Assembly (NCBI GenBank): GCA_020073485.1
Contig: JAIQFB010000011.1
Coordinates: 50,046 to 114,045, forward strand
Length of the DNA: 64,000 nucleotides
Direction: 5' to 3'
Origin: Terriglobia bacterium
Lineage (GTDB): Bacteria; Acidobacteriota; Terriglobia; Acidiferrales; UBA7541
The translations under genes and the position numbers were made by a program. The notes under the pieces were generated by a model. The model worked only from the letters and a program-made list of their open reading frames with translations, had not been told where the DNA came from and did no database searches. This document shows positions 6,410 to 63,286 of the stretch, piece by piece; positions within the stretch are counted from its first letter, which is position 1; every line of letters begins with the position of its first letter.

Positions 6410-7723
6410 ATGGACACCAAAATATCGCAACGCATGAACCGGCCGCTCGCCGAGGTCGATCCCGACATCGCGGACGTGCTCCGTGAGGAAGGACGCCGCC
6501 AGGGCACCGGCCTGGAATTGATTCCGTCGGAGAACTTCGTTTCCGAAGCCGTGCTCGAAGCCATGGGCTCGGTGCTCACGAACAAATACGCCGAAGGATA
6601 CCCGGGCAAGCGCTATTACGGCGGCTGCGAATTCGCCGACCGCGCCGAGCAGTTGGCCATCGACCGCGCCAAGGCGCTGTTTGGCGCCGAGCACGCCAAC
6701 GTGCAAACGCATTCCGGCACGCAGGCTAACGTTTCCGTCTACATGGCGGCGCTGCAGCCGGGCGACACGGTGCTGGGCATGAACCTGGCGCACGGCGGGC
6801 ACCTGACGCACGGCCACCCGCTGAATTTTTCGGGCAAAATGTACAAATTCATCCCCTACGGCGTGAACAAGGAAACCGAGAGGATCGATTACGACGAGCT
6901 GGCGCGCCTGGCCGACGAACACAAGCCGAAAATGATCGTCGGCGGCGCGAGCGCCTATTCGCGCATCATCGATTTTCCGCGCATGGCGGAAATCGCACGC
7001 GAGGTGGGAGCGCTGTTCTTCGTGGACATGGCGCACATCGCGGGCCTTGTCGCCGGCGGCATGCATCCGAGCCCGGTGCCACACGCGGATTTTGTATCGA
7101 CCACCACGCACAAGACGCTGCGCGGCCCGCGCGGCGGACTGGTGCTGTGCAAGCAGCAATTCGCCAAGGAACTCGACCGCATCACGTTCCCCGGCACGCA
7201 GGGCGGCCCGCTAATGCATATCATCGCGGCCAAGGCCGTGTGCCTGAAGGAAGCGGCCGATCCGGGATTCCGCGAGTATGCCAAGCAAATTGTGGCCAAC
7301 GCGCAGAAGCTTGCCGCCGAAATCGCCAAGGCCGGTTTCCGCATCGTCAGCGGCGGCACGGACAATCACCTTTTCCTGATCGATTTGTATTCACGCGGCA
7401 TCACCGGCAAGGACGCGCAGCCAGCCCTGGATCGCGCCGGCATCACCGTCAATAAAAATTCGATTCCATTCGACCCCACACCGCCCATGACGGGCGGCGG
7501 AATCCGTCTGGGCACTCCCGCCATCACCACGCGTGGAATGCGCGAAACCGAAATGGGCCGCATCGCCGCATGGATTTCCGAAGTGCTCTTGCACCTGGGC
7601 GATGGCGCGATCGAGCAGCGCATTCGCGGCGAAGTCGCCGAGTTTGCCGTGCAGTTCCCTCTTTACACGCGCCGCTGGGACATTGCGCCCACACTGGCCG
7701 GGAGCGGAAGCTCCGCGCGCTGA
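6410..7723 (+). CDS. glyA: serine hydroxymethyltransferase
   Basis: 437 aa. [24 protein letters not shown], and [13 protein letters not shown] (PLP-lysine motif). Confidence 0.97.
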
Positions 7724-7742
7724 GCGCGGGCCGCCGACGCTG

Positions 7743-8891
7743 ATGCGTGTTGCGATTGATATCCGGCGCGCCGGCGATTTCGGTCACGGCACCTACATCC
7801 GCAACATCGTCAACCAGTTTGCCCGCAGCGACCGCGAAACCGAATACCTGCTGATCGGCCAGCAGTCGCACATCGCGCGATTTGATCCGCTCCCGGAAAA
7901 TTTCCAGCTGCTCGATTATCCGTCCCCGCCCGGCTCGTTCCACACGCACATGCACTTGCCGTACCTTCTGCACAAGCAGGGCGTCGATCTGCTGCACATG
8001 CCGTGGTTCTACGCACCGGCCGTGGTGCCCACTCGGATGGTGATTACCGTGCACGACTTGACCGACGTGCTCATGCCGCCGCCGGGCGTGCCGGAGATGA
8101 TGCAGACGGGCCGCCTGTTTTTTGCGCGGCGCGCCCTAGCGCGTGCCGACCGCATCATGGCCGTGTCGCACTCCACCAAGCGCGAACTGTCGCGTGTATT
8201 CAACGTGCCGGAAGAAAAAATCGAAGTGGTTTACAACGCGCTCGATGAGCGTTTCGTGCGCGAGCCGATGCCCACGGACGCCAACCGCATCCTGGAACGG
8301 CACGCCGTCACCGACCCCTTCGTGCTTTACGCCGGCAACATCAAGCCGCAGAAAAATCTTCCGCGCCTGATCGAGGCCTTCGCCGTGGTCAAGGCGGACC
8401 TGCGCGATCATCCCGAATATGCCAATCTGAAATTGCTGCTGATCGGCGATTCGGCCGAGGAGCATTCGGATCTGCGCCGCGCCGTTTTGCGTTCGCGCCT
8501 GCAGGGCGACGTGCGCTTCTTGGGATTCGTGCCGCATTCCGTGCTGCGCGTGTTCTATTCGCGCGCGCGGGCATTTCTGTTTCCGTCTCTCTATGAAGGG
8601 TTCGGGCTTCCGCCGCTCGAAGCCATGGCGCACGGCGCGCCGGTGCTGACCTCGAGCGTGTCTTCCCTGCCGGAAGTTTTTTCACAAGCGGCGCTGCTGG
8701 TGAATCCCGAAAACGTGTTTGAAATTGCGCGCGGGATACGCCAGATCCTCACCGAAGACGTGCTTCGCGAAACCCTGGTGCGGCGCGGCTACGAGCTGGT
8801 GCGGAAATATTCCTGGGAACGCTCGGCCGAACAGGTTCGCGAGGTGTATCGCTCGGTGGTTGCGGGTGAGCCGGTGAAGTCGTCTGAGTAG
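7743..8891 (+). CDS. glycosyltransferase family 4 (GT-B)
   Basis: ORF 7533..8891 trimmed to the ATG at 7743 (MRVAIDIR). C-terminal [22 protein letters not shown] (EX7E-type motif). Confidence 0.85.
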
Positions 8892-8931
8892 GGGAAACCG
8901 GGGGAAGAGTGTTTGTTCCGCGCTGTGTATC

Positions 8932-9351
8932 CTACACTTCCGTTCCCGCCAGGAGGATTTCGATCTCTTCCACACTGCCGTCGCGAATCGAAAACGCGCG
9001 CACGGGCTTCGGCGCGTCCGGCCGCAACGACACGATGAAATATGCCTGGTCGGGATAGCCAGCTTGTTCAATGTCTGTTGAAGAAGGAACGTTTTCGGTG
9101 GAAAGATGTGAATGATACTGGCCCAGGTGCGCCAGGTTATCGGCGCGCAAGGTCCGGAACACCTGAAACAGTTCCCGCGGAGCGATTTCGTAGCAGGTCG
9201 CGCTCGCAAGAGAATTTGCCGCCGGAAAAATCGCGGTGATCACGCCGTCGCGGCCCGCAAGAAGGCCGCAACACTCGATGTGCGGCTCGCGCCGCGCGTG
9301 GCGAAGCATTTCGTCGAGAATTTCGGCGCAGATTCGAATCTCCCCAGGCAT
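8932..9351 (-). CDS. stand-alone JAB/MPN (JAMM) metalloprotease-domain protein
   Basis: 139 aa. An upstream Glu (REPHIECCG) and an exact JAMM motif, HSH-x7-S-x2-D (HSHLSTENVPSSTD). Confidence 0.8.
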   Translation of the reverse strand: MPGEIRICAEILDEMLRHARREPHIECCGLLAGRDGVITAIFPAANSLASATCYEIAPRELFQVFRTLRADNLAHLGQYHSHLSTENVPSSTDIEQAGYPDQAYFIVSLRPDAPKPVRAFSIRDGSVEEIEILLAGTEV

Positions 9352-9422
9352 GCGGCCAGTTTACCTCAAGCCGTCCGGCCGCCGGAACGCATGATGATGC
9401 AATGCTGCCGAATGCGATCCGG

Positions 9423-10091
9423 TTAAACCGTCACATTCAAACTGCCGGCGCTCGCCGGAACGCCCGAGCCCGTTGCTCCGGCCGATCCGGGCGAAATGAA
9501 CCCGCCAATCTGCTGCAGATCGTTCTGCAAGGTCGCAAACGCCTGCTGCGCGCCCTGGAGATTTCCGCCTTGCAGATCCTGAGCCAGTTGACTGAACGCC
9601 TGGGCAACCGGATTGGTCTGTTGCGAGAACGAAGATGGCGAGGAGGACGACGAGGAATTCTGGTCGTTATCCACGCGGTGATGATGATGGCGATGTCCGC
9701 CGGATGGCTGCGCGCCCTGCACTTCCTGCTGCGCCGTCTGCTGGATGTTGGTGTAATCCTGTTGCGCCGCCTGCAAATTCCCCGATTGCAGATCCTGCCC
9801 CAGTTGCTGGAAGGCCTTGATTAATGGATTGGCTCCCGTCTGACTGGTTCCCGAAGCGCTGTTCAATAGGCTCGAGAAATCGCCCGTGCCGCCGCCGGTT
9901 TGGCTCAACCCCGGGAGATTCTGGGACAGGGTCGCAAAATCCTGCTGCGCCCCGTTCAGATTGCCGGATTGCAGGTCCTGCCCGAGTTGCTGAAACTCAC
10001 TGCGGATCTGCTGAAATCTGCTCTGGCCCGTCTGGGGCTGCGAACTATTTAGCACGGAAAGGATCCCGCTGGCGATGCCTGCAACCGACAT
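9423..10091 (-). CDS. Gln-rich triple-repeat protein with a His cluster, unknown function
   Basis: 222 aa. Three copies of about 30 aa with core F-x-QL-[GA]-QDLQ-[SG]-GNL-x-[GA]-AQQ-[DA]-[FY], plus GGHRHHHHR and a poly-Ser run. No obvious signal peptide. Same strand as the JAMM gene and 71 bp upstream of it. Confidence 0.6.
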   Translation of the reverse strand: MSVAGIASGILSVLNSSQPQTGQSRFQQIRSEFQQLGQDLQSGNLNGAQQDFATLSQNLPGLSQTGGGTGDFSSLLNSASGTSQTGANPLIKAFQQLGQDLQSGNLQAAQQDYTNIQQTAQQEVQGAQPSGGHRHHHHRVDNDQNSSSSSSPSSFSQQTNPVAQAFSQLAQDLQGGNLQGAQQAFATLQNDLQQIGGFISPGSAGATGSGVPASAGSLNVTV

Positions 10092-10453
10092 GTTTCACCT
10101 CAATTTGTAAAGCAAGAAACAATCAAGTGTTTTTGCGCAAACATATCCAAATGCTTTATCGGCGGAACTTTCAAGAATTTTAGGCGTCCCGCCGCCCGGC
10201 AAAGTACGCGTTTGCTAATGCAAATAGCCTGCCAAGTCCATTCCGCCTTTCCGCGTTTCCGCACCGGCGAATTCGTTGGACTTAGCGAACGCAACGGCAC
10301 ACAAGCAAGGAGCCGGCATGATTGACTGGGCAAGAATTTCGGTTCGACACATGATTTCTCCGGCAAGTTTTGCCCCTGTGCCAAGATGAAACATGCTCCT
10401 AGAATGACCTCAGCAAGAGAGGGAAAGAACGTGAATTGCGAATCAAGGCAGGG

Positions 10454-42410: not shown

Positions 42411-42485
42411 GTAGGACAGGCACTCTTGCCTGTCCCGCGCAATTTCGGCAGGGCTCGCGCGGACAGGCAAGCGTGCCTGTCCTAC
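42411..42485. repeat. REP family B, bipartite element
   Basis: GTAGGACAGGCACTCTTGCCTGTCC, then a 25-nt spacer, then GGACAGGCAAGCGTGCCTGTCCTAC. Each unit is itself a hairpin. Confidence 0.9.
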
Positions 42486-42563
42486 AAAAACCGGCCCGCG
42501 CGCGTCAATCTCCCCGACATGCTAGAATGACTGTTCCGTCTCGCCAGTGTGGGACGCCGAATC

Positions 42564-44006
42564 ATGCCGAAAGCCGGAATTATCAGCCTGGGTTGCCCAA
42601 AGAACCTCGTCGATAGCGAGGTGATGATGGGCGTTCTCGCGCGCAACGGCTATGAATTTACGCCGCGCGCCGAGGAAGCCGACGTCCTGGTCGTCAACAC
42701 CTGCAGCTTTATCGCCCCCGCGCAGAAGGAATCGATCGACACGATTCTGGAGATGGCCGAATACAAAAAATTCGGCTCCGCGAAAAAATTGATCGTTGCC
42801 GGATGCCTGGTCGAGCGCTACCGCGATCAAATCCGAGAACAGATTCCCGAGGTCGACGCCGTAATCGGAACGGGCGAACTGGAAAGCATTCTGGCGGCCG
42901 TCGAAGGGAAATTACGCTCGGATGCGGAGAGCGCCGCTGCCCTGCCGTCGTATCTTTATCACGATCTCACGCCGCGGATTCTCTCGACGCCCAAGCACGC
43001 CGCGTACATCAAGATCGCCGAGGGCTGCGATCATCCCTGCACGTTCTGTATCATCCCGCAACTGCGCGGAAACTTTCGCAGCCGCAGGTTTGAGTCCGTT
43101 ATTCGCGAAGCGGAAAATCTCGCCGCGTCCGGCGTCCGCGAAGTGACACTGATCGGGCAGGACACCACCTCCTACGGCGAAGATTTGAATTTGCGGGACG
43201 GCCTGGCGGTGCTGCTGGAAAAACTTGCGGGCGTCGACGGACTGCAGTGGGTGCGGTTTCTCTACTGCTATCCCAATCGCGTGACGCAGCGCCTGCTCGA
43301 TACGATTGCCGCGCATCCGCGTCTGGCGAAATACATGGACATGCCTCTGCAACACGCCAGCCGCAACGTCCTCGCGCGCATGAAGCGCGGATCGAGCGGC
43401 GAGGCATTTTTGCAACTGCTTGGGCGCATCCGCGCAACAATCCCGGGCGTCTCGCTGCGCACTTCGTTCATCGTCGGCTTCCCCGGCGAGACCGAATCCG
43501 ACTTCCGCGAACTCTGCGGCTTCGTGCAAGAGGCCGAATTCGACTGGATGGGCGTTTTTCCGTACTCCGACGTCGACAACGCTTCGAGCCACGCCCTCGA
43601 TCAAAAAGTGGACGAGGATACGATCCAGGAGCGCCAGAATCGCTTGATGGAAATTCAGCAGAAGATTTCCGCGCGTAAGCTGCGGAGATTTCGCGGGCAG
43701 CGCGCCACCGCGCTGATCGAAGGCCCCTCCAAGGACACGCCCATGGTCTGGGAAGCGCGCCTGGAAGGCATGGCCCCGGATATCGACGGCAAAGTCTACC
43801 TGAACGATATCCAAGTGCCGGGAACGGATTTGAACGCGCAGCCCAGCGACGTGGTCACCGTCGAAATCACCGAATCGCACGAGTACGACCTGGTGGCCCG
43901 CGTCGTGGAAATTCTGGACGTGCCACGCCCGGCAGCGGTGCAGGCCGCTGCGACCGCAGCGGTGCAGCGCGTGAACACTGGCGCGGCGCTAAGGATTTTC
44001 CAGTAG
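42564..44006 (+). CDS. rimO: ribosomal protein S12 methylthiotransferase
   Basis: ORF trimmed to the ATG at 42564 (MPKAGIISLGCPKN). Radical-SAM CDHPCTFC and a C-terminal TRAM domain. The stop codon TAG lies inside the next REP B unit. Confidence 0.92.
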   Translation: MPKAGIISLGCPKNLVDSEVMMGVLARNGYEFTPRAEEADVLVVNTCSFIAPAQKESIDTILEMAEYKKFGSAKKLIVAGCLVERYRDQIREQIPEVDAVIGTGELESILAAVEGKLRSDAESAAALPSYLYHDLTPRILSTPKHAAYIKIAEGCDHPCTFCIIPQLRGNFRSRRFESVIREAENLAASGVREVTLIGQDTTSYGEDLNLRDGLAVLLEKLAGVDGLQWVRFLYCYPNRVTQRLLDTIAAHPRLAKYMDMPLQHASRNVLARMKRGSSGEAFLQLLGRIRATIPGVSLRTSFIVGFPGETESDFRELCGFVQEAEFDWMGVFPYSDVDNASSHALDQKVDEDTIQERQNRLMEIQQKISARKLRRFRGQRATALIEGPSKDTPMVWEARLEGMAPDIDGKVYLNDIQVPGTDLNAQPSDVVTVEITESHEYDLVARVVEILDVPRPAAVQAAATAAVQRVNTGAALRIFQ

Positions 44007-44082
44007 GACAGGCACTCTTGCCTGTCCGGTTTTGTTGAACCTGATAAAGTCAAAAGCGGACAGGCAAGAGTGCCTGTCCTAC
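44003..44082. repeat. REP family B, bipartite element
   Basis: GTAGGACAGGCACTCTTGCCTGTCC, then a 30-nt spacer, then GGACAGGCAAGAGTGCCTGTCCTAC. Confidence 0.9.
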
Positions 44083-52548: not shown

Positions 52549-53739
52549 ATGAACGCAACCGTATCATCGAGTACCCCACCCGCGACGACCGCCGCCGACG
52601 CAGTCTTCATGGACCGCGCGCTGGAACTGGCCGCGCGCGGCGTCGCGCTCGCCAGCCCCAATCCCATGGTCGGCGCTGTCCTGGTGCGTGAAGGGAAAAT
52701 CATTGGCGAGGGTTTTCATGCCTACGAAGGCATCCTGCACGCCGAGATCGTCGCGCTGGAATCGGCAGGCGGCACCGCGCGAGGCGCGACGCTGTACATC
52801 AATCTGGAGCCATGCTGCCACACGGGGCGCACCGGGCCCTGCACGAAAGGCTTGATTGCCGCGGGCGTCGCGCGCGTCGTGGCGGCTATGGCCGACCCCA
52901 ACCCAGTTGTCGCGGGTCGCGGCTTCCAGGAACTGCGCGAGGCCGGCATCGAAGTCGCCGCCGGCCTGCGCGAGGCTGAAGCGCGCCGCCTCAACGAAGC
53001 CTTTGCATGGTGGATTGTTTCCAAGAAGCCGCTGGTGACGCTGAAGTCCGCGCTCACGCTCGACGGCCAACTGGCCCTGCCGGTCCCGCCCGGACGCGCC
53101 CGGCCGAAGCTGAAGGACCGCTGGATCTCGTCGGAGGAATCCCGCGCCGAAGTGCAAATCATGCGCCACGCCTCCGACGCGCTGCTGACCGGCATCGACA
53201 CGGTCCTCGCCGACGATCCGCTGCTCAACGACCGCACGGGATTGCCGCGCCGCCGCAATCTGCTGCGCGTGGTGATGGATTCACGCCTGCGCCTGCCGCC
53301 GCGGTCGAAGCTGGTGCGCTCGGCCGATGGCGATGTACTTGTCTTTACCCGCGCAAAGGAAGACTCGCCGAAAGCGAAAGCGTTGCGCCGCGCGGGCGTG
53401 GAAGTAGTTCGCCTCGGCGGCGGACGCGGCGCGCGGCCCGACCTGTGCCCGGCCATCGAGGAGCTTGGCCGCCGCGGAGTCCTGAGCGTCCTGCTGGAAG
53501 CGGGCGCGACGCTGAATTCCGCCGCCCTCTCCGCCGGAATTGTGGATAAGATGCGTGTGTTCTTCGCGCCCAAGATCGCCGGATTCAGCGTTCCCGCTTT
53601 TGCAGGAAAGAAATCAGGCGCGGCTCGCGCATCAAACGCCTTCCGCGCGGCGCAGGACCTTCGCAACGTAACCATGGCGCAATTTGGAGCTGATTTCGCA
53701 GTCGAGGGATATCTCCGCGATGTTTACCGGACTCGTTGA
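52549..53739 (+). CDS. ribD: bifunctional riboflavin biosynthesis deaminase/reductase
   Basis: Start taken at the ATG at 52549. Deaminase zinc motifs HAEIVAL and PCCHTGRTGPC, plus a C-terminal reductase domain. Confidence 0.92.
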   Translation: MNATVSSSTPPATTAADAVFMDRALELAARGVALASPNPMVGAVLVREGKIIGEGFHAYEGILHAEIVALESAGGTARGATLYINLEPCCHTGRTGPCTKGLIAAGVARVVAAMADPNPVVAGRGFQELREAGIEVAAGLREAEARRLNEAFAWWIVSKKPLVTLKSALTLDGQLALPVPPGRARPKLKDRWISSEESRAEVQIMRHASDALLTGIDTVLADDPLLNDRTGLPRRRNLLRVVMDSRLRLPPRSKLVRSADGDVLVFTRAKEDSPKAKALRRAGVEVVRLGGGRGARPDLCPAIEELGRRGVLSVLLEAGATLNSAALSAGIVDKMRVFFAPKIAGFSVPAFAGKKSGAARASNAFRAAQDLRNVTMAQFGADFAVEGYLRDVYRTR

Positions 53740-54364
53740 GCAGGTCGGCACAATCGAATCGTTCGAGCGAAGCGACGCGGGCGCCAGCATTCGCGTGAAC
53801 GCCGGCCCGCTCGCCGACGGCTTGGCGAAATCAGGGAGCATCGCCGTCAACGGCTGCTGCCTCACCGCCATCGACATTTCCGGAAAAACGTTTGCCGCCG
53901 ATCTCTCCGGCGAAACGCTGCGCCGCACCAGCCTGGGCGAATTAAAACCCGGCGCGCGCGTGAACCTCGAGCGTCCGCTCACGGCCATGAAGGAACTCGG
54001 CGGCCACTTCGTGCAAGGCCACGTCGACGGCGTCGGCCGCGTCGCGCGCCTCGACCCCGAAGGCGCCAACTGGTGGTTCGGCGTCCGCGTGCCCGACGAA
54101 CTCGCGCGCTACGTCGCCATGAAAGGCTCCATCGCGCTCGACGGCATCAGCCTCACCGTCGCCGGCTGGCACGACGGCGTGGTCGAAACCGCCATCATTC
54201 CCTTCACCTACGAGCACACCAATCTTTCCTCCCTGAAACCCGGCGGCGCCGTGAACGTCGAGTGCGACATCCTGGCCAAGTACGTCGAGCGGATGATCCA
54301 GGCGAGGGTGGAAACACCCAAGTCGCAGCTCAGCGTTGCTCGATTGATCGAAGAAGGGTTTTAG
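53720..54364 (+). CDS. ribE: riboflavin synthase alpha chain
   Basis: ORF trimmed to the ATG at 53720 (MFTGLVEQVG). A two-barrel internal repeat (SIAVNGCCLT / SIALDGISLT). It overlaps ribD by 20 nt. Confidence 0.92.
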   Translation: MFTGLVEQVGTIESFERSDAGASIRVNAGPLADGLAKSGSIAVNGCCLTAIDISGKTFAADLSGETLRRTSLGELKPGARVNLERPLTAMKELGGHFVQGHVDGVGRVARLDPEGANWWFGVRVPDELARYVAMKGSIALDGISLTVAGWHDGVVETAIIPFTYEHTNLSSLKPGGAVNVECDILAKYVERMIQARVETPKSQLSVARLIEEGF

Positions 54365-54454
54365 GCTAGGTGACCAACACGGGGATCTTTCCAACAGCAC
54401 AGGATATGCCTGGTTGGGGCAAGCAACGTCGCGCGATGCTCTGCCTGGATTCTC

Positions 54455-55108
54455 TCAGGCCATAATTTCAGAAATCCGTGGGGACACTATCTCGCCACGC
54501 CTGGTTACGACGACATCCTCCGGAAAATCCTGGCGAAATTCGACCTGCAAGGAGTCGAGCCGGTCCAAGAATTCCGTGAGGCGCGGCAAACAGGCATTGT
54601 TTACATCATGCAGAACAACGACCGCCCAATCGCGCGCCGCCACATCCGCGATGCCTTTCTCGATCCACCCGTCTTGATCTTTCCAGTCTCCCGGCACGCT
54701 GGACCACAACACGCAGGTATACTTTCCTGCCTGCAGAAGATCCAGCGCCGCGGGGCTTAACAGATGAGGTCCCAGCAACCCTCCGCCTCCCATGGGCCGG
54801 AAGAATCTTTCAGGGTGGGCCAGCTCCCCGATCAACTCTTGCGTGTTCTCAATCTCCCGCCGGGCATATTCGGCGTCAGGCCGATCGCCCAGCGGCACGC
54901 TGTGCGTGAACGAATGGTTGCCAATCCAGTGGCCCTCCGATTGGGCCCTGACGGCCAGTTCCCTTCCGCCCGGGCTCATGAGATTTTTCCCGAGAACGAA
55001 AAATGTGCAATGTATTTTGCGGGCGGACAGAATATCGAGCACTTGTTCGGTAACGCCGGGCGTCGGCCCGTTGTCGAAAGTGAGCGTCACGCGCTTGGCG
55101 GCTATCAT
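54455..55108 (-). CDS. polysaccharide deacetylase (NodB homology domain)
   Basis: 217 aa. Motif 1 reads TFDNGP (canonical TFDDG). Motif 2 is NHSFTHS. Confidence 0.8.
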   Translation of the reverse strand: MIAAKRVTLTFDNGPTPGVTEQVLDILSARKIHCTFFVLGKNLMSPGGRELAVRAQSEGHWIGNHSFTHSVPLGDRPDAEYARREIENTQELIGELAHPERFFRPMGGGGLLGPHLLSPAALDLLQAGKYTCVLWSSVPGDWKDQDGWIEKGIADVAARDWAVVVLHDVNNACLPRLTEFLDRLDSLQVEFRQDFPEDVVVTRRGEIVSPRISEIMA

Positions 55109-55205
55109 GTTTCCTGTCTTGGTTTCTTACGCGGTCCGCATTGTACGCCGGCGGCCTCCACTCGGGCCAGCAGCCTCGCGAAGGACGCGATGTTTTTTGC
55201 GGAAG

Positions 55206-56168
55206 CTAGTGTTGCGGCAGGGGACCGGCGACGGCGGTTTGCACCTGGGAATCGGGCGGCGTGGAAAGCATGTCCAATTCCGGCGTGACCTCGTGCGGAT
55301 GCCGGACGACGTAGTGCGCGATCAAGTAGCCGATTGCCGCTCCCGCGAACACGTCGGAGGGGAAATGGGCTTGCAGCGGAACGCGCGAAAAACCAACCAG
55401 GCCCGCCAGTCCGTACGCCAGCCATACGTGCCATGCAGGATGCGGATACCGGTCGGCAAACACGGTGGCGACAGAGAACGCCGCGATCGTGTGCCCGGAG
55501 GGAAAACTTCCCACGCCGCCGATGTAGCTCCCCTGGGTTTGCTTGAACCAGGTGGCGGATAAATCCCCGCCGGGAGGAACCGAATTTGGACGGTAGCGCC
55601 GGTCGATATCCTTCAGCACGGTAGTGACGACTTCGGCATCGATGACTGCCTCGCCCGCAAGCAGCACGGTATGCTGCGCGTAGACATCCTTTCGTATCAG
55701 ACCGATGGCGTAAAACGCGGCCGGAAACACTTCCATGGCGGTCGCCGTATTGAAGCCGCTAAAAGTCTTATTGAATCCATCGAATGCATGCGTTGTCTGG
55801 ACGGGCCTCATGATGCGTTCATCCGAAACGGCAAGCGCGGCCGTGATCCCCAGAATGGCGAGCGTCGGCTTGAGGTGGTGTCCGCGAGCCACCAAAACCG
55901 GAAACGTCCAAATTTGCCTTTGGTCCTGGAGCAGATTCGGTACCAGCAACCGCCAGGAAACTTCCCTTTCCGGCGTAATTCTGGAAACGGGTGCGGATAT
56001 TGCCGGACCGGATGCGGCAGGAGCCGAGGATGCCGGATCGGATGCCGGCACAGCCTCGGCACTTGGCTCAGCGCCCATCGCGGAAATATCCTGCGCGGCG
56101 CATCGTTGCATCATGGCCAGGGCCGCAATCAGCACAAAAACAAGGCGAATTCTCAGAGGGTTGCGCAT
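55206..56168 (-). CDS. PAP2-superfamily phosphatase, membrane/secreted
   Basis: 320 aa with a signal peptide. The tripartite motif KDIDRRYRP, PSGHT, SRVPLQAHFPSD. Confidence 0.85.
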   Translation of the reverse strand: MRNPLRIRLVFVLIAALAMMQRCAAQDISAMGAEPSAEAVPASDPASSAPAASGPAISAPVSRITPEREVSWRLLVPNLLQDQRQIWTFPVLVARGHHLKPTLAILGITAALAVSDERIMRPVQTTHAFDGFNKTFSGFNTATAMEVFPAAFYAIGLIRKDVYAQHTVLLAGEAVIDAEVVTTVLKDIDRRYRPNSVPPGGDLSATWFKQTQGSYIGGVGSFPSGHTIAAFSVATVFADRYPHPAWHVWLAYGLAGLVGFSRVPLQAHFPSDVFAGAAIGYLIAHYVVRHPHEVTPELDMLSTPPDSQVQTAVAGPLPQH

Positions 56169-56328
56169 AGTTCGGGCCCAATCACTGTAGCAAGATTCTC
56201 CAGGTTGGGATTATGAATCGAAGGCCTAATGCGCCAACTTATTACTGGCTTTCGGGACAGTTTGCGGTGGCCTGGTCTCCGCAAGTTTCCCAGAAGCGCC
56301 CCGGTGCAGAATTGAGGAATGCCGCGGG

Positions 56329-57768
56329 TCAGCTCGAGTGTTGCGCGCTCTTCTCCCGCGCCCCGCGATAATACAGGATTAGTCCCAGCATTACGGACAG
56401 CACGGTCCCCGCCACCAGCTTCGTCTCAAACAGAATCTTGCTGGTCGTGTCCCCCGGAGGAATGAAGGAGAGGACAATTCCAATGGCGACCACCAGCAAT
56501 CCAAATCCCGAAGCGAGAATGACTCCGACCCGGCCGCCCGGAATAAGCACCGCCGATTTGTTCTCCTGCCGGTCAGGCAGCGCGTAGAGCTTGATTGCCG
56601 CGGCATACATGTAAAGGAACGGAATAAAATAAAGGATGGTCGCGGCATCGACCAGAATCTGGTACGCGCCGCGCATGCTGTCGCTGATCTGCGCCAGCAG
56701 CAGAATCACGCCGGAAATCACAGCCTGCACCAGAATGGAAATATAAGGGGTCTTCCACTTGGGATGAATTTTCCCGAAGGCCTCCGGAAGGTACCGGTCA
56801 ATCCCGACGATGAACGGGATGCGCGCGACTCCCGCGACCGTCGATCCCACCCCGCCCAGGTTTCCCACCGTTACCAGCAGGGCGGCAATCACCCCGGCCG
56901 AGGCCATGCGCAGCGCCGTTGACCCCTGAGTCATCGCCTGGAAGACCCCGCTCTTGGTATCCACGCTCTCGCTCGGCAGGATCATCAGCACGGCGATAGT
57001 TCCCGCGATATACATCAGGGCGATCAGCCCTCCGGAAGCAAAAATCGCGCGCGAGAAGACGCGCTGCGGGTCGCGCACTTCCTCGCTCATCACCGAAACC
57101 AGTTCCAGTCCGGTAAAGGCAAATGCGAGCTGCGGCCAGAAATTTACCGTGTCCCAATCCCAGTGCGGAATCATCGCGGCCACCGTGAAGTGCGTCACCG
57201 AGCCGTGGCGCCATCCCAGCACCAGCGCAACGCCCACAATCATCATCAGCGGCACGTAGGTCCCCACGCCGCCGGCATTCTGCAACCATTTGCCGATGTG
57301 CAATCCGATGATGTTCAGGTACACGGCAATAAACAACATCACGAGAGAGCCCACCAGCAGGAATGTGCGATTTTCGGCGAGCCAGGCGTTTCCAGCGCCG
57401 CCAACGTAAGACGTCATGGCCGCGCTGGCCAGCAGCAATCCGGGGAAATAAAATACGGTGTAAATCCAGTACGTCCATCCGGCTACAAATCCGTGGAAAT
57501 CGCCGAACGCCATCTTCGTCCAGACGTACAGGCCGCCCTCTTCGGGAAAACGCGTGGAGAGTTCCACCACCACGTACGCCGTCGGCACGAAAAACAAGGC
57601 CGCCGCCAGGATCCACAGAGTGATGGAGGATTGGCCATTGCGCGCCGCCGCCGCAATCCATCGCGGGCCCAGGACCGCTCCGATTGTAAACAGCAATACG
57701 TCCCAGAAACCCATCACGCGGCGCAGCTGCTTTTTTGCGTCGGATGGGGCGGGGGGCGACTCGCTCAA
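56329..57768 (-). CDS. APC-superfamily amino acid permease
   Basis: 479 aa with about 12 TM segments. N-terminal KKQLRRVMGFWDVLLFTIGAVLGP is typical of the family. The apparent TTG start overlaps the stop of the upstream ATPase gene (TTGA). Confidence 0.85.
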   Translation of the reverse strand: MSESPPAPSDAKKQLRRVMGFWDVLLFTIGAVLGPRWIAAAARNGQSSITLWILAAALFFVPTAYVVVELSTRFPEEGGLYVWTKMAFGDFHGFVAGWTYWIYTVFYFPGLLLASAAMTSYVGGAGNAWLAENRTFLLVGSLVMLFIAVYLNIIGLHIGKWLQNAGGVGTYVPLMMIVGVALVLGWRHGSVTHFTVAAMIPHWDWDTVNFWPQLAFAFTGLELVSVMSEEVRDPQRVFSRAIFASGGLIALMYIAGTIAVLMILPSESVDTKSGVFQAMTQGSTALRMASAGVIAALLVTVGNLGGVGSTVAGVARIPFIVGIDRYLPEAFGKIHPKWKTPYISILVQAVISGVILLLAQISDSMRGAYQILVDAATILYFIPFLYMYAAAIKLYALPDRQENKSAVLIPGGRVGVILASGFGLLVVAIGIVLSFIPPGDTTSKILFETKLVAGTVLSVMLGLILYYRGAREKSAQHSS

Positions 57769-58565
57769 GAGATCACGTCCAGTGCGGGGATGAGTTGATC
57801 CTGGCGCAGGAAATTGTGCAGGAAAGGCTCCGGGGCGGCCTCGAACCCGGCCCAGGGCCCGAAATAAGCCACGCGCCCTTCATGCAGAAACACAATGCGG
57901 TCGGCCAGCTTCTTGGCCAGGTGCGTGTCGTGGGTCACAACCACCGAAGTCTTGTGAAATTTTTCTTTCAGCCGCAGGATCAAATCCCCGGTATGTGCGG
58001 CCATCAGCGGATCGACCATGGTGGTCGGCTCGTCGTACAGAATCGCCTCCGGATCCTGCGCCAGCGCCCGCGCGATGGCCACGGCGCGCTTCATGCCCGT
58101 ACTCAGTTCCGACGGCAGTTTATCGGCGACGTCGGCCACCTCCAGCATCTCTTCCAATTCGGCGACGCGCGCTTCTTTCTGCTCGTAAGTAAGCCCGGCA
58201 CTTTTTTCCAGCGGGAACGCGATGTTTTCGGCGACGGTCAGCGAATCGAACAGCGCGCCCGATTGAAATACCATGGTTACGCGCCTGCGGATTTCGGCCA
58301 TCTCTCTTTCGCTGCAATCCATAATGTCCTTGCCATCGATCAGGACCTGGCCCGAATCCGGCCGCAAGAATCCCATGATGTGCTTCAGAGCCACCGATTT
58401 TCCCACGCCGCTGCGCCCCATGATCACGCAGGTCTCGGCGCGGTCCACGAAGAAACTCACGTCGTTCAGGACCACGTGGTCGTCAAACGCCTTGCTGACA
58501 TTACGGAATTCGATGTAGTGGCCGGTGGCGGCCGTACCGGAGGGTTGTTCGATGCGCGCGCCCAT
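57765..58565 (-). CDS. ABC transporter ATP-binding protein, MlaF-like, with no cognate permease adjacent
   Basis: 266 aa. Walker A GRSGVGKS, signature LSTGMKRAVAIARAL, Walker B ILYDEPTT. Confidence 0.88.
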   Translation of the reverse strand: MGARIEQPSGTAATGHYIEFRNVSKAFDDHVVLNDVSFFVDRAETCVIMGRSGVGKSVALKHIMGFLRPDSGQVLIDGKDIMDCSEREMAEIRRRVTMVFQSGALFDSLTVAENIAFPLEKSAGLTYEQKEARVAELEEMLEVADVADKLPSELSTGMKRAVAIARALAQDPEAILYDEPTTMVDPLMAAHTGDLILRLKEKFHKTSVVVTHDTHLAKKLADRIVFLHEGRVAYFGPWAGFEAAPEPFLHNFLRQDQLIPALDVIS

Positions 58566-58660
58566 ATCGAATTGCTATTGTTGACGACCCTGCCCGCAGA
58601 ATCAAAACAATTCTAAATAGAAGGAACCACGAAACCTCCGATTCGCCCTTCTTCTTGTCG

Positions 58661-58738
58661 TCATTCCGAGCGAAGCGAGGAATCCCTCTTCGATTGAAAT
58701 TGCGAAACAGAGGGATTCCCCGCTCCGCTCGGAATGAC
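58661..58738. repeat. REP family D inverted repeat
   Basis: TCATTCCGAGCGAAGCGAGGAATCCCTCT, then 21 nt, then AGAGGGATTCCCCGCTCCGCTCGGAATGA. Confidence 0.85.
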
Positions 58739-58925
58739 TGCGTGCAGGGTGCTGGCAAAACAGACTTGGAGCAAGACGCTGGACGATTCGGGGGACTGCA
58801 ACGAAAAATAGCTGCATGCCCGGCAGCCCAGCGTTTGCAGCAGGACCGACATAAGTAACTTATTTACAGCAATATACATGGCTTTTCAGAAATCCACTGC
58901 CAGCCCCCGGCGAATGCGTCTTTGC

Positions 58926-58954
58926 TTGACATGCCCAAGCATTTTACCTATATT
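58926..58954 (+). promoter_or_regulatory. sigma70-type promoter of groESL
   Basis: TTGACA (58926-58931), a 17-nt spacer, then TATATT (58949-58954). Confidence 0.75.
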
Positions 58955-58979
58955 AGCACTCGACCGAGAGGAGTGCTAA
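58953..58979 (+). promoter_or_regulatory. CIRCE operator (HrcA binding site)
   Basis: A perfect match to the consensus: TTAGCACTC-N9-GAGTGCTAA. It overlaps the -10 element and the expected transcription start. Confidence 0.92.
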
Positions 58980-59101
58980 CGATCTACTCAGCGCCCTACG
59001 GCCAAGATTCCTGGATTACATTAAGAAAGGCGTAGGCTTTGCTTGCTCGAACTTACTGGGCAACGGGAGCCTGCCCTAAACTCGAACGGAGGCACGAAAC
59101 G

Positions 59102-59422
59102 ATGTCAGTTAATGTTACTCCGCTGCATGATCGCGTTCTGATCAAGCGGATTGAAGAGAAAGAATCCATCAAGGGCGGCATCATCATCCCCGACACGGCC
59201 AAGGAAAAGCCGCAAGAGGGCGAAGTGATCGCCGCAGGCGCGGGCAAAATCGAGAAGGGCGAGCGCATTCCTCTCGACGTAAAAGTCGGCGACCGCGTGC
59301 TGTTCGGCAAGTACAGCGGCACCGAAATCAAGGTCGAAGACGAGGACTATCTGATCCTCCGCGAAGACGAAATCCTGGCAAAACTTTCCGGCGCAGCCAA
59401 GGCTGCCGGCGGCAAGAAGTAA
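59102..59422 (+). CDS. groES: co-chaperonin GroES
   Basis: ORF trimmed to the ATG at 59102 ([16 protein letters not shown]), with GGAGG upstream. Confidence 0.96.
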
Positions 59423-59499
59423 CTTTTCCCCTGATCCGCCGTTCCGGAAAACCTTCGTGGTGAACCAGAGGCGGGCCGAGGGCCGCAATCTTTAGGAAA

Positions 59500-59529
59500 A
59501 TCTCAAATTTGAAATTTCAAATTTGAGAT
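59500..59529. repeat. REP family C: perfect 30-bp AT-rich palindrome in the groES-groEL spacer, followed by three GAAATC repeats
   Basis: In ATCTCAAATTTGAAATTTCAAATTTGAGAT the first 15 nt are the exact reverse complement of the last 15. GAAATC is repeated three times at 59530-59547. Confidence 0.9.
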
Positions 59530-59531
59530 GA

Positions 59532-61217
<1,686 letters not shown>

Positions 61218-61243
61218 GACGATGAAACAACGCGTGGTTCAAC

Positions 61244-61282
61244 AGGGGCGTCCCGGTTCGATCGGGACGCCCCTTTCTTGTT
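61244..61282 (+). terminator. intrinsic terminator of groESL
   Basis: A perfect 12-bp stem, AGGGGCGTCCCG-GTTCGAT-CGGGACGCCCCT, followed by TTCTTGTT. Confidence 0.85.
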
Positions 61283-61308
61283 GAGCATCAGTCCTTAGTT
61301 TACAGCGC

Positions 61309-61680
61309 ATGGATGCTGCTCGATCACCACGAACCGCGCATACTAGTTCCATTCTCAAGCGGAATCACTTAGAATCCGCCGGAATGCCCAAGAAACGGAA
61401 AGCTCCGCCCCCGAGTGCGCCACCTCCGGAACAACCTAGCCTGGATGGAATTGTTTTCAGCGACGGCTGGCTTTTCGTAAAGATCTTCTTTATAACTGCG
61501 GTCGTTCATTCTCTATTTAAGGGAATAGTCGTACCCTTTGTCGGCCCAGAGGTTTGGACCAGTCGATTTGTAGAAGCTCTCTTGAATATTAGCTATGTTT
61601 TACAAGTGTTCGCTGTGCTCCTAAATATGCTCATTTCTTTCTATTTTCATTTTAGAAATAGGATTAGGAGAGGGGCGTGA
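61309..61680 (+). CDS. small two-TM membrane protein, unknown family (holin-like topology)
   Basis: 123 aa from the ATG at 61309, or 98 aa from the ATG at 61384 (MPKKRKAPPPSAPPPEQP). Two hydrophobic helices (WLFVKIFFITAVVHSLF, VLQVFAVLLNMLISFYF) and a basic C-terminus RNRIRRGA. Its stop overlaps the next gene's start (GTGA). Confidence 0.55.
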   Translation: MDAARSPRTAHTSSILKRNHLESAGMPKKRKAPPPSAPPPEQPSLDGIVFSDGWLFVKIFFITAVVHSLFKGIVVPFVGPEVWTSRFVEALLNISYVLQVFAVLLNMLISFYFHFRNRIRRGA

Positions 61681-62783
61681 ACACCATCATTGAGTCATTC
61701 TTCTTGGACCGCACCTACAGACGCGCGACCTATGCGCTTAGTGGCATTGTATCAACGCTATATTCTGCCCTGAATCTTTTGAATTTAGATCTGGGGAAAA
61801 TGCAAGTCGCAGTTGAAGCAGGAGGGCTTTATTGTCTACTCATTGCGGTCGGCATTCTATTGCGCCCATTTATTCGCAAGACCCAACCAAAGGTACCAAA
61901 GATCATTCTGAAGCCAGTCCGGTCCCGATCAGTCTTTATCTCACTTGCAATAGGCCTGTGTCTATTTGGAATTTCAGAGACGAACATCATAGTTAGGCTA
62001 CAAACTGCTTTAATCGATGCGCGGATTGCGAGATTCGACCAATCGGGCATGAGTGTCTATTTCTTTCGAACCCCGGAGCGCGTAGATACCCAGCTGCGGT
62101 CTCGCTTCCACACGCTGGAATCAATCGTGGACATTTCTTACCGCTACCAAATTCCCGTGGACCAAGGCAACTTAACCAAAGCAAAAGAAAAGGTACGCAC
62201 CGCGCTTAATCAACCACGGCTCTCCGAAACGACAAAACAGGCCGGCTGGATTGCAGCTAGCAGACTTTCCGAGTTGTCTGCAGTACAAGCGACTCGAAGC
62301 AACACCAGTCCCGTACAAGCTACCGGTTACATTATCAACTCTAACTTGGATCTCTCAGATAAAAAGGTCCGTTTTCTGGGCAACCATTCCGCACTGATTT
62401 TCGGGGGGGGGGACATTGTCGTCGAAAATAGCACAGTAGTGTTCGACGGCATTGATTTTCGAGCACAACAACCATTCCGCGCGGCTTTCTATGTAGTCGG
62501 CTCAAGTTCTTCGATCGTGGTCCGTAACGCCACCGTCGAAAATCTTGATCAGACGCTTGATGGGATCACATGGATAAATGTCGAATTCCAGCACTCAATG
62601 ATCAGAGTTAATAGCGGTCCCTTTGCACTCGTAAATGCCACCTTTAAGGACTGCGACTTCAGATGGCTACCGCTAGGGGGCCAAGCAGGTATGGAATTAC
62701 TAGACAGAATAAACAAAGCCAATGGGCAACCCGTCACCTTCGCGTATGAAGGCGTCCCGGTGCCCACCACGTCTAAACCTTAG
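61677..62783 (+). CDS. membrane-anchored protein with beta-helix-like C-terminal repeats, unknown family
   Basis: 368 aa. The GTG start is preceded by AGGAGAGGGG. Hydrophobic segments GGLYCLLIAVGILLRPFI and VFISLAIGLCLFGI. The C-terminus has periodic V-x-N-[SA]-T strands (IVVENSTVVFDG, IVVRNATVENLD, ALVNATFKDCDF). Confidence 0.6.
   Translation: MNTIIESFFLDRTYRRATYALSGIVSTLYSALNLLNLDLGKMQVAVEAGGLYCLLIAVGILLRPFIRKTQPKVPKIILKPVRSRSVFISLAIGLCLFGISETNIIVRLQTALIDARIARFDQSGMSVYFFRTPERVDTQLRSRFHTLESIVDISYRYQIPVDQGNLTKAKEKVRTALNQPRLSETTKQAGWIAASRLSELSAVQATRSNTSPVQATGYIINSNLDLSDKKVRFLGNHSALIFGGGDIVVENSTVVFDGIDFRAQQPFRAAFYVVGSSSSIVVRNATVENLDQTLDGITWINVEFQHSMIRVNSGPFALVNATFKDCDFRWLPLGGQAGMELLDRINKANGQPVTFAYEGVPVPTTSKP
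62403..62412 (+). repeat. G10 homopolymer tract inside the 368-aa ORF
   Basis: Ten consecutive G read directly from the sequence, in frame as GGG GGG GGG G.. (FGGGD). Confidence 0.95.
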
Positions 62784-62845
62784 TAAATCAGATCACTCTC
62801 TAAGGGACGGGTGGCCCAGCCTTTGACTCGGAATTTTCGGGTGGC

Positions 62846-62883
62846 CCGTCCTTCGTTGTGTGAAGGGCGGGGGTTTTATTTGC
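62846..62883 (+). terminator. candidate intrinsic terminator of the low-GC cassette, inside a REP-like GGGTGGCCC repeat region (family F, 62805-62875)
   Basis: CCCGTCCTTC-GTTGTGT-GAAGGGCGGG (one G-U pair) followed by GGTTTTATTTG. GGGTGGCCC occurs twice, at 62810-62818 and 62840-62848. Confidence 0.5.
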
Positions 62884-62956
62884 GTCGGGCGCAGGGATTC
62901 GGGCTTGCTATTGGCGCAGCTAATCTGCCATCGTTAATCCGACGGGAGGCAATCCA

Positions 62957-63166
62957 ATGGCTGAGAAAAGCAAACTGAAAGATGCGGCGGTGAAGATCGG
63001 CGCCGCAGCAGGGACGATTGACAGCAGAGCTCACAAGGCAATTCACAAAGCCGCGGAAGCCGCGCACGTAGCGAACCAGGAACTCATGGAAATAACGAAG
63101 CAGGTGGAGGCTCTCAAGAAGCAGTTGGCAAAAAGTTCCAAACGGCTGCAGGACGCGCTGAAGTAG
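62957..63166 (+). CDS. small all-helical (coiled-coil-like) protein, unknown function
   Basis: 69 aa, with GGGAGG 7 nt upstream of the ATG. Lys/Ala-rich heptad-like sequence ...ELMEITKQVEALKKQLAKSSKRLQDALK. Confidence 0.55.
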   Translation: MAEKSKLKDAAVKIGAAAGTIDSRAHKAIHKAAEAAHVANQELMEITKQVEALKKQLAKSSKRLQDALK

Positions 63167-63167
63167 C

Positions 63168-63286
63168 GTAGGACAGGCACTCTTGCCTGTCCCTGTGGAA
63201 ACGAAGCTGGCTTGCGGGAACAGAGAAATTATTGCATCGGCATTTGCCGCTGCGTCTTGAGGAACAGGCAAGAGTGCCTGTCCTAC
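63168..63286. repeat. REP family B, bipartite element with a long spacer
   Basis: GTAGGACAGGCACTCTTGCCTGTCC, then about 68 nt, then GGAACAGGCAAGAGTGCCTGTCCTAC. Confidence 0.85.

Follow-up and report, generated by a model that had tools for sequence, protein, structure and literature searches.

What occupies the interval directly downstream of groEL in the genome of a Terriglobia bacterium (Acidobacteriota, Acidiferrales, UBA7541), and are the genes found there native to that position? We addressed the question in a window of 64,000 nucleotides (GenBank assembly GCA_020073485.1, contig JAIQFB010000011.1, positions 50,046 to 114,045 of the forward strand); all coordinates below count from its first letter unless another locus is named. 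An initial annotation of the window had placed a low-GC two-gene membrane cassette between the groEL terminator and a cluster of repetitive extragenic palindromic (REP) sequences, and had left a lysis-type, a surface-display and a defence role open. The segment 61282-62886 very probably holds one self-contained operon of about 1.45 kb with accessory status, whose two genes we call A and B. The pair is best described as a small autonomous accessory membrane module from two undescribed protein families, and where we write of a "system" the word is meant as a hypothesis.

Composition and limits of the segment

Nowhere in the 64 kb is the composition as atypical as in the segment 61282-62886 (G+C fraction 0.48 versus 0.61). 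In sliding windows of 300 nt the G+C fraction falls from 0.60-0.64 over groEL to 0.43-0.51 at about 61300-62800 and recovers afterwards; among bins of 1.5 kb, 61501-63000 has a value of 0.487, and the next lowest bin of the 64 kb has 0.555. The stretch 61401-62800 is the top deviant of 314 overlapping 1.4-kb windows, with a tetranucleotide z of 6.3 and a GC z of -4.2. The hand counts from which the initial annotation argued (26, 29 and 23 G+C of 60 in the segment, 37 of 60 in groEL) are exact, and its suspicion of an atypical composition is borne out by windowed GC, tetranucleotide z and G+C at third codon positions (GC3), all of which deviate.

GC3 is 0.44 in gene A and 0.52 in gene B, compared with 0.81 in groEL and about 0.70-0.82 in other long open reading frames (ORFs) with a coding-looking pattern over the three codon positions. 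If A and B were ordinary vertically inherited genes, their low G+C content would have to come from their hydrophobic amino acids. The second codon positions would allow this, since GC2 is ordinary (0.39 in A and 0.42 in B, like the neighbouring genes), but the deficit lies at the third positions, at 0.44-0.52 versus 0.70-0.82. Because the deficit sits at synonymous positions while GC2 is ordinary, the low G+C content is not a by-product of hydrophobic residues.

On its left the segment abuts the intrinsic terminator of groEL (61244-61281, plus strand; hairpin 61244-61274 plus T-run). A second hairpin and T-run on the same strand (62843-62881; hairpin 62845-62871 followed by GGTTTTATTT) is the probable terminator of the A-B transcript. 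Both terminators described in the initial annotation were found by a terminator scan. The second is common to the window, to locus L009, where the downstream sequence differs, and to loci L027 and L029, where the upstream sequence differs.

The slot downstream of groEL

Among named sequences, those nearest to the GroEL of the window come from Terriglobia or "Candidatus Acidoferrales" metagenome-assembled genomes (91-94% identity), which makes the source an acidobacterium, of class Terriglobia by this similarity. The contig of a close relative, L036, encodes a GroEL 98% identical to that of the window, and its DNA is collinear with, and 82-92% identical to, 53245-61281. The last base of this homology (92% over 2.4 kb) is 61281, where the T-run of the groEL terminator ends and the slot has its left edge; from about 62887 the two sequences match again, which defines an indel of 61282-62886. 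The right flank over which homology to L036 resumes (62887-63166, plus strand) includes orf69, a gene for a 69-aa protein. Between the two flanks L036 carries 2.4 kb of other content (7713-10142), encoding a Peptidase_M50-like membrane protein of 185 aa and a BCS1_N/AAA ATPase of 423 aa. Only at the P-loop does the latter resemble IetA, a defence ATPase; the Peptidase_M50-like and BCS1-type genes may be another accessory pair. The initial annotation had proposed to compare synteny downstream of groEL in related genomes, and in L036 the cassette is absent from this position. Since L036 is syntenic on both sides with different genes between, the cassette is, on this comparison, an accessory unit occupying a slot that varies between strains and is bounded by the groEL terminator and orf69.

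Within the species, the cassette is present with no more than one mismatch in five contigs, and all same-species contigs that span the whole interval from groEL to orf69 carry it after groEL, as vertical inheritance would have it. Against vertical inheritance, however, stand the other genes in the slot of a relative with a 98% identical GroEL, and homology blocks elsewhere that end at the cassette edges, with unrelated flanks. Together with the codon-position evidence these findings leave vertical inheritance largely refuted.

Three same-species contigs depart from the common arrangement. L027 and L029 are 99.7% identical to the window from 62835 on and have unrelated sequence upstream (L027 1-177 and L029 1-22 are non-window sequence, with junctions at 62835-62842). 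In L028 the 3' part of B from 62275 is joined to unrelated GC-rich sequence (L028 1-80). These junctions may represent alternative slot contents, a rearranged B or assembly chimeras.

In L009, a copy of the cassette 97.9% identical to that of the window extends from the contig start (window 61338) to 62799 and is followed by a related hairpin and then unrelated DNA. The last sequence common to both copies is thus a 16-nt tail after the B stop codon (62784-62799, plus strand), which, as judged from this comparison, marks the right end of the transferable block. On the left, a slot-specific spacer (61282-61346, plus strand) has no homology to L036 and lies outside the block conserved between cassettes elsewhere.

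The initial annotation had noted the heptamer CCTTAGT at both composition boundaries. Both copies exist, at 61293-61299 within the spacer and at 62778-62784, the latter one nucleotide to the left of where it had been placed, and neither marks a boundary. A role of the heptamer as att core or target-site duplication was rejected. Its right copy shares bases with the B stop codon and reads CCTGAGT in L009, and the 98%-identical block extends 16 nt further; on the left, 85 nt separate the heptamer from A, while the conserved block in other cassette pairs starts at most 41 nt before A. Random pairs of 40-nt zones of the window have a common 7-mer about 10% of the time, and the CCTTAGT repeat is a matter of chance.

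Families, pairing and selection

Searches of Pfam, NCBIfam, PADLOC and PDB sequence profiles returned nothing for A or B, and a PDB profile search for B at E values up to 10 was equally empty. A and its 11 relatives have no match in Pfam, NCBIfam or PHROG. The sole weak family signal is that of B residues 282-351 to phrog_26297, a family of unknown function (E = 1.7e-4). The initial annotation had recognised no characterised family for either protein, and with Foldseek added to these searches the result goes no further than the generic level of a beta-helix.

Among 5.8 billion proteins B has 24 relatives (90%-identity clusters), all "hypothetical" and lacking a precomputed Pfam domain. A profile search of 1.84 billion cluster representatives recovered 282 clusters at E <=1e-3 and 37 at <=1e-30. 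Most members of the family are 300-390 aa long, with conservation in the N-terminal membrane region and the last 80 residues. When 110 B relatives were compared with Pfam, three distant ones gave sub-threshold matches to Pentapeptide_4 (3.6e-4 or weaker) and one distant relative matched Pect-lyase_RHGA_epim (8.5e-4), with nothing meaningful among the results; none matched DUF4097, DUF2154 or PspC at E <=1e-3. Of 185,579 species-representative genomes only one, an Acidobacteriota metagenome-assembled genome, has a member of the B family. No B relative was found in IMG/VR (2.9 million contigs), in 50,697 GenBank phage genomes or in 72,556 PLSDB plasmids, so a phage or plasmid origin is unsupported.

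A small gene encoding two predicted helices precedes B in every locus with enough upstream sequence, save the distant L034. The co-occurrence of A and B in unrelated genomes, which the initial annotation had asked about, is therefore nearly general. The paired loci are L001/L002, L003, L004, L005/L006/L019, L007, L008, L010, L011-L013, L014, L015, L017, L018, L020 and the P0002 contig, together with the distant L031-L033 and L035; they represent about 15-16 unrelated acidobacterial contexts. The two genes overlap by ATGA elsewhere and by GTGA in the window, and by 16 nt in L035. We considered an A-B fusion in L034 (protein P0078) and found it unsupported: its additional N-terminal part does not resemble A, and the sequence upstream has no ORF that does.

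Three pairs of loci with 70-86% protein identity gave dN/dS values of 0.19-0.55 for A and 0.26-0.40 for B, by which both genes are evidently under purifying selection. Between the window and L009 the ratio is 0.8-1.2, calculated from just 5 substitutions in A and 24 in B; a value near one fits fast-evolving accessory genes.

Unit of exchange

In three pairs of loci the cassettes are 82-89% identical in DNA and the flanks are unrelated. L001 and L007 are 89% identical over L001 5664-7110, a block that opens with the ACTTCC motif, 41 nt before A, and closes with the B stop codon; L003 and L012 are 87% identical over L003 5713-7107, and L014 and L015 are 82% identical over L014 2775-4217. A Cas1-like gene about 1.3 kb upstream is also common to L003 and L012, which otherwise have no flanking ORF in common. 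The homology runs from at or just before the A start to the B stop, and in L001/L007 it includes the whole upstream motif described below. Cassette G+C is 0.46-0.53 in 19 loci, whatever that of the flanks, and is below that of comparable flanks in all loci except L010, by a margin as small as 0.002. After the B stop codon there is no conserved sequence or structure across 16 loci. From these comparisons we conclude that a block reaching from promoter to stop codon has probably been exchanged horizontally among acidobacterial chromosomes, lodging in variable regions. The simplest guess is that it would arrive by recombination into such regions, via flanking homology or repeats.

Known classes of mobile element do not describe the block. 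The initial annotation had reported no integrase or transposase with the cassette, and indeed none lies inside the unit or adjoins it in the window, where its neighbours are groES/groEL, orf69 and an HbpS-like gene; L010 has an integrase downstream on the same strand. We rejected an integron gene cassette, as there is no attC-like structure downstream, the unit has a promoter-like motif of its own, and no integrase adjoins it in the window. An insertion sequence (IS), miniature inverted-repeat element (MITE) or transposon was rejected as well, there being no terminal inverted repeats and no transposase inside, and CCTTAGT not being a duplication. Searches for RNA elements and for a tRNA integration site found none.

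Gene A and its upstream motif

Gene A (61384-61680, plus strand) was delimited from the ORF list, an alignment of homologues and hydropathy. The longest ORF begins at ATG 61309, but the start codon of A is most likely ATG 61384, which gives a membrane protein of 98 aa; homologues are 93-108 aa long (96-101 aa in the closer loci) and start at the equivalent Met. The N-terminus of the protein is Lys/Pro-rich (MPKKRKAPPPSAPPP), hydrophobic segments lie at about 23-52 and 62-86, with a short VGPEVW loop, and the basic tail FHFRNRIRRGA contains a conserved C-terminal pattern, FHFRNRxR. Two transmembrane helices are predicted, with both basic ends cytoplasmic by the positive-inside rule.

A promoter-like motif (61347-61375, plus strand) stands directly upstream: TTCCAT at 61347-61352, a 17-nt spacer, TAGAAT at 61370-61375, and then 8 nt to the A start. 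The general layout across loci is ACTTCC, about 19 nt, ATAGAAT, 8-9 nt and ATG. In nine loci (five distinct sequences) the motif ACTTCC-N14-22-ATAGAAT occurs once per locus, only just upstream of A, and a relaxed pattern matches once in the 64-kb window versus 0.04 expected. Also 8 nt from A, the distant L031 shows a perfect TATAAT, and L005 and L010 show TAGAAT. We infer that the motif is a promoter from which transcription begins on or right beside the start codon of A. Two points tell against this assignment and keep it inferential: the -35-like part matches TTGACA poorly, and a simple sigma-70 scan did not call a promoter before A.

No Shine-Dalgarno sequence precedes A. Between loci a 1-nt indel occurs in the 8-9-nt spacer before the gene, so this stretch is not coding. 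Given a promoter-like motif 8 nt before its start, A is probably translated from a leaderless mRNA. Leaderless genes have been predicted to make up 9.7-19.4% of the genes in three Acidobacteria genomes (PMC3160421).

The initial annotation had described the topology of A as holin-like. That topology stands, a two-helix arrangement with N-terminus and C-terminus inside being predicted; A shows, however, neither the sequence of a described holin family nor the genetic context of a phage lysis cassette. Like class II holins, pinholin-like proteins and abortive-infection effectors with two transmembrane segments, A is shorter than 100 aa and has two predicted helices, both ends cytoplasmic and a highly basic tail, and like the genes of class II holins its gene lies directly upstream of an overlapping partner. 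Unlike them, it matches no Pfam or PHROG holin family, its partner is not an endolysin, and a phage copy was not found. The pair could be a remnant or domesticated lysis cassette, with A as a class II holin and B as a membrane-tethered lytic protein. Such a cassette would explain the 98 aa, two transmembrane helices, N-in/C-in topology and basic C-terminus of A, a gene overlap typical of lysis cassettes, and the weak PHROG match of B. However, B has no muralytic domain, and its anchor, which comprises two or more hydrophobic helices and a loop of strongly basic character, is unlike a signal-arrest-release (SAR) segment. Phage structural genes flank the pair in no locus, bar one S74-domain gene in L018. 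With no relatives in IMG/VR, phage genomes, plasmids or the PHROG holin families, the lysis-type role that had been left open is weakened, and we consider it highly improbable.

Gene B: start, topology and fold

Gene B (61677-62783, plus strand) encodes a membrane protein of 368 aa, as judged from the ORF list, hydropathy and AlphaFold2. Its start overlaps the A stop codon by GTGA (61677-61680), and a Shine-Dalgarno sequence, AGGAGAGGGG, recognised by inspection, lies inside the 3' end of A (61666-61675, plus strand). The initial annotation had the two ORFs, the overlap and this ribosome-binding site as we find them. Most other loci have an equivalent Shine-Dalgarno sequence, AGGAnnnnnnATGA. 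The overlap, together with a Shine-Dalgarno sequence of its own inside A, suggests that B is translationally coupled to A.

The two hydrophobic N-terminal segments previously described in B correspond to strongly hydrophobic residues 44-62 and 88-106; to these must be added a weaker helix at 12-36. AlphaFold2, run with an alignment of 25 sequences, gave a pLDDT of 76 overall, with helices at 12-36, 41-67 and 82-101, a helical region at 104-205 and, beyond these, a C-terminal domain rich in beta-strands. The loop 63-88 has 8 Lys/Arg and zero acidic residues. A loop so basic should be cytoplasmic, which would place the C-terminal 260 residues of B, and with them its beta-helix, in the periplasm by the positive-inside rule.

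When the C-terminal 166 residues were modelled alone, AlphaFold2 produced stacked strand rungs and a capping helix with a pLDDT of 90.2, in agreement with the beta-helix that the initial annotation had suspected from the strand periodicity. A right-handed beta-helix of about six rungs is predicted at about 210-330, its handedness taken from the Foldseek matches. Foldseek searches of the PDB and of viral models returned only right-handed beta-helices (best E = 7.5e-3, TM-score <=0.38): the SV2 luminal and other pentapeptide-type helices, pectate and polysaccharide lyases, tailspikes, and CARP/TBCC domains. The residues conserved in the broad family are F304, V321, F323, C326 and the N-V-x-F rungs; they look like core ladder positions and not like a catalytic site. 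B thus resembles the right-handed beta-helix domains of the pectate-lyase superfamily, tailspikes and SV2-type proteins in the modelled three-strand rungs stacked over its C-terminal 160 residues, in its N-V-x-F ladder and in its C-terminal capping helix. It differs from these families in that the matches are at noise level, with no Pfam Beta_helix or Pectate_lyase match, and in that its helix is short and borne on a polytopic membrane anchor, which those families lack.

The fold bears on a possible role of the pair in the envelope or in exopolysaccharide. B would then be an anchored periplasmic beta-helix that binds or modifies glycans, of the lyase, epimerase or depolymerase kind, A would be its partner, and the pair would tune the cell surface and not sense phage. 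The nearest folds do include pectate lyases, polysaccharide lyases and depolymerases (RbmB, VexL, PL3 and tailspikes), the domain is predicted to be periplasmic, one distant relative matches Pect-lyase_RHGA_epim at 8.5e-4, and surface-modifying genes are often accessory and AT-rich too. But the fold matches are weak (E >=7.5e-3, TM <=0.38), non-enzymatic pentapeptide-type helices match equally well, and the helix is short, with about six rungs and conserved residues unlike a catalytic site. Nor are glycan-synthesis genes conserved beside the pair. We think a glycan-directed function unlikely.

Gene B contains a G10 homopolymer (62403-62412, plus strand; Gly-Gly-Gly codons), the sole homopolymer of at least 8 bases found by a sequence scan of the 64 kb, which could be prone to slippage. 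There is no evidence that it acts as a phase-variation switch: its length is identical in seven same-species contigs, and L009 reads G8CG.

Neighbouring genes and possible function

Recognised defence genes occur beside several of the cassettes. A Shedu SduA nuclease adjoins the cassette in L012, a DpnII-like restriction endonuclease in L014 and a nucleotidyltransferase of the PADLOC candidate type PDC-M05A (E = 4e-47) in L007; Cas1 is encoded upstream in L003, with a fragment of it in L012. Neighbours of mobile type are a tyrosine integrase (L010), IS110 (L004) and a Y1 transposase (L001). A tail-fibre-like protein with a Peptidase_S74 domain is found in L018, and an excisionase-like HTH_17 protein in L035.

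The Cas1 gene of L003 (2955-4445, 496 aa, PADLOC E = 1e-43) lies 1.3 kb upstream of the cassette. The annotated neighbours include no Cas2 or other Cas protein, a CRISPR array not having been searched for, and this Cas1 may be solo or casposase-like. The Cas1 fragment of L012 (2798-3202) is beside the Shedu gene.

A higher AT content than that of the host is typical of mobile and defence genes. From the AT-rich composition, fast evolution, patchy distribution, strain-level presence or absence, and neighbour genes of the cassette, our best guess is phage exclusion or abortive infection, as an accessory function exerted at the envelope. It is a candidate function that we hold with considerable doubt. 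A and B would form an inner-membrane pair. A would be a two-helix hairpin with both basic ends in the cytoplasm; B would have two or three anchor helices, a basic cytoplasmic loop, and a helical stalk and six-rung beta-helix extending into the periplasm. The beta-helix of B might bind or sense, with A as a small membrane partner or effector. A more specific proposal, that the pair is an undescribed, Acidobacteria-centred envelope immunity system in which B senses phage or envelope perturbation and gates the effector A, and which spreads without a recombinase, seems to us rather doubtful. The explanation as a whole, a compromise between a well-founded anatomy and a tentative function, we would put slightly short of an even prospect.

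Several observations weigh against it. A recognised defence gene is nearby in about 4 of roughly 15 contexts, a raw count that lacks a background rate, and L003 and L012 are related loci, which lowers the number of independent defence contexts. In the window the cassette stands alone between housekeeping genes. In PADLOC-DB 2.0, neither A nor B has a match at E values up to 1. The inner-membrane pair is drawn from predictions of topology and of A-B interaction only. The unit carries neither a recombinase nor terminal inverted repeats that would point to a transfer mechanism. Finally, the P0002 contig carries a 73%-identical copy whose gene spacing would fit a position after groEL; in a search with the GroEL C-terminus, the 383-aa P0002 fragment was not among the best 120 matches.

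Strict pairing and scattered contexts, mobile elements included, would also be expected of a selfish membrane addiction module of the toxin-antitoxin kind, in which most likely A damages the membrane and the other product neutralises it, stabilising the cassette wherever it lands. Translational coupling and the small autonomous unit with its own promoter would suit such a module, as would the size, topology and charged C-terminus of A, which are those of small membrane toxins and holins. B, however, at 368 aa and with a large extracytoplasmic domain, is unlike known antitoxins; no toxin-antitoxin model in Pfam or PADLOC matches, and the cassette is absent from the plasmid and phage collections. 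We regard an addiction module as improbable.

Comparison with known systems

Kiwa KwaAB and RexAB are two-gene membrane-associated anti-phage modules in which the larger partner is cytoplasmic. The A/B pair is like them in being a small autonomous unit with a membrane component, and differs in having two membrane proteins as its products and a large domain of predicted periplasmic location. With defence-island modules the pair has in common a patchy distribution, AT-richness, fast evolution and the repeated proximity of defence and mobile genes. The PspC/LiaF/YvlB proteins belong to envelope-stress modules in which beta-helix "toastrack" domains go together with small membrane proteins. Their membrane anchor, beta-helical domain and small membrane protein encoded alongside recall A and B; unlike them, the A/B pair has no Psp or Lia gene associated with it, and it is mobile and not a conserved stress regulon.

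Acidobacteria are among the most abundant soil bacteria, and to our knowledge almost nothing is known of their accessory and defence gene pools; defence catalogues draw for the most part on cultured Proteobacteria and Firmicutes. Metagenomes commonly contain conserved gene pairs that are uncharacterised. What makes this one stand out is its strict pairing, its conserved promoter of the leaderless type, its predicted periplasmic large domain and its clean cassette boundaries: it is a couple with no annotated relative despite about 280 clusters of relatives, has its own expression signals and appears to move between genomes. Should it be a defence or exclusion module, a large domain facing the periplasm would be an unusual placement among known systems. 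Should it be a surface-modifying pair, it would still provide a clean example of a strain-variable slot beside a core gene, groEL. Sharply bounded blocks from promoter to stop codon that lack recombination sites raise the question of how such minimal cassettes travel, and the variable groEL slot could serve to mark population heterogeneity in metagenomes.

Flanking genes and repeats

The protein encoded by orf69 (62957-63166, plus strand) is helical and belongs to no family, and the gene does not belong to the cassette. Intact in the species of the window, it is degraded in L036 (about 10200-10270), where the ATG has become ATA and the frame is shifted. We rejected orf69 as a third component: it is present in L027 and L029, where the cassette is missing, and absent from all other cassette loci. 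Beyond it lies an HbpS-like gene (PF03928; 63462-63998, minus strand), the product of which carries a C-terminal tail rich in Pro and Gly (PPLPPPPAREGGPGPGQGGGRPPQQ). In both the window and L036 this gene is conserved and anchors the variable region on the right.

The REP cluster reported downstream of the cassette is real and comprises two families of repeats. The first was found by a repeat scan as REP-like direct repeats, CGGGTGGCCCAGCCTT and CGGGTGGCCCGTCCTT (62805-62853, plus strand), with CGGGTGGCCC... at 62808 and 62838. A REP-like GGACGGGTGGCC... is found downstream of B in the window, L001, L007 and L018; these elements are multi-copy in L018 and so may simply be common intergenic repeats. 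The second family is a 22-nt palindromic sequence, GGACAGGCACTCTTGCCTGTCC, with inverted pairs at 63171/63262, 42414/42461 and 44006/44058. Its intergenic sites are 42411-42494, 43998-44082 and 63168-63286, with 7 matches versus 0 expected, and the pair after orf69 forms a 27-nt inverted repeat that is 96% complementary.

On the other side of the slot, groES is preceded by a perfect CIRCE operator (58953-58979; TTAGCACTC-N9-GAGTGCTAA), through which HrcA presumably controls groESL; the signals of the cassette are separate. Between an ABC-transporter gene and groES, a low-GC intergenic stretch holds a long near-perfect hairpin (58659-58739). The hairpin, probably one more interspersed palindromic repeat, has weak miRNA-model scores on both strands, and ORFs that cross it encode RGIPRFARND.

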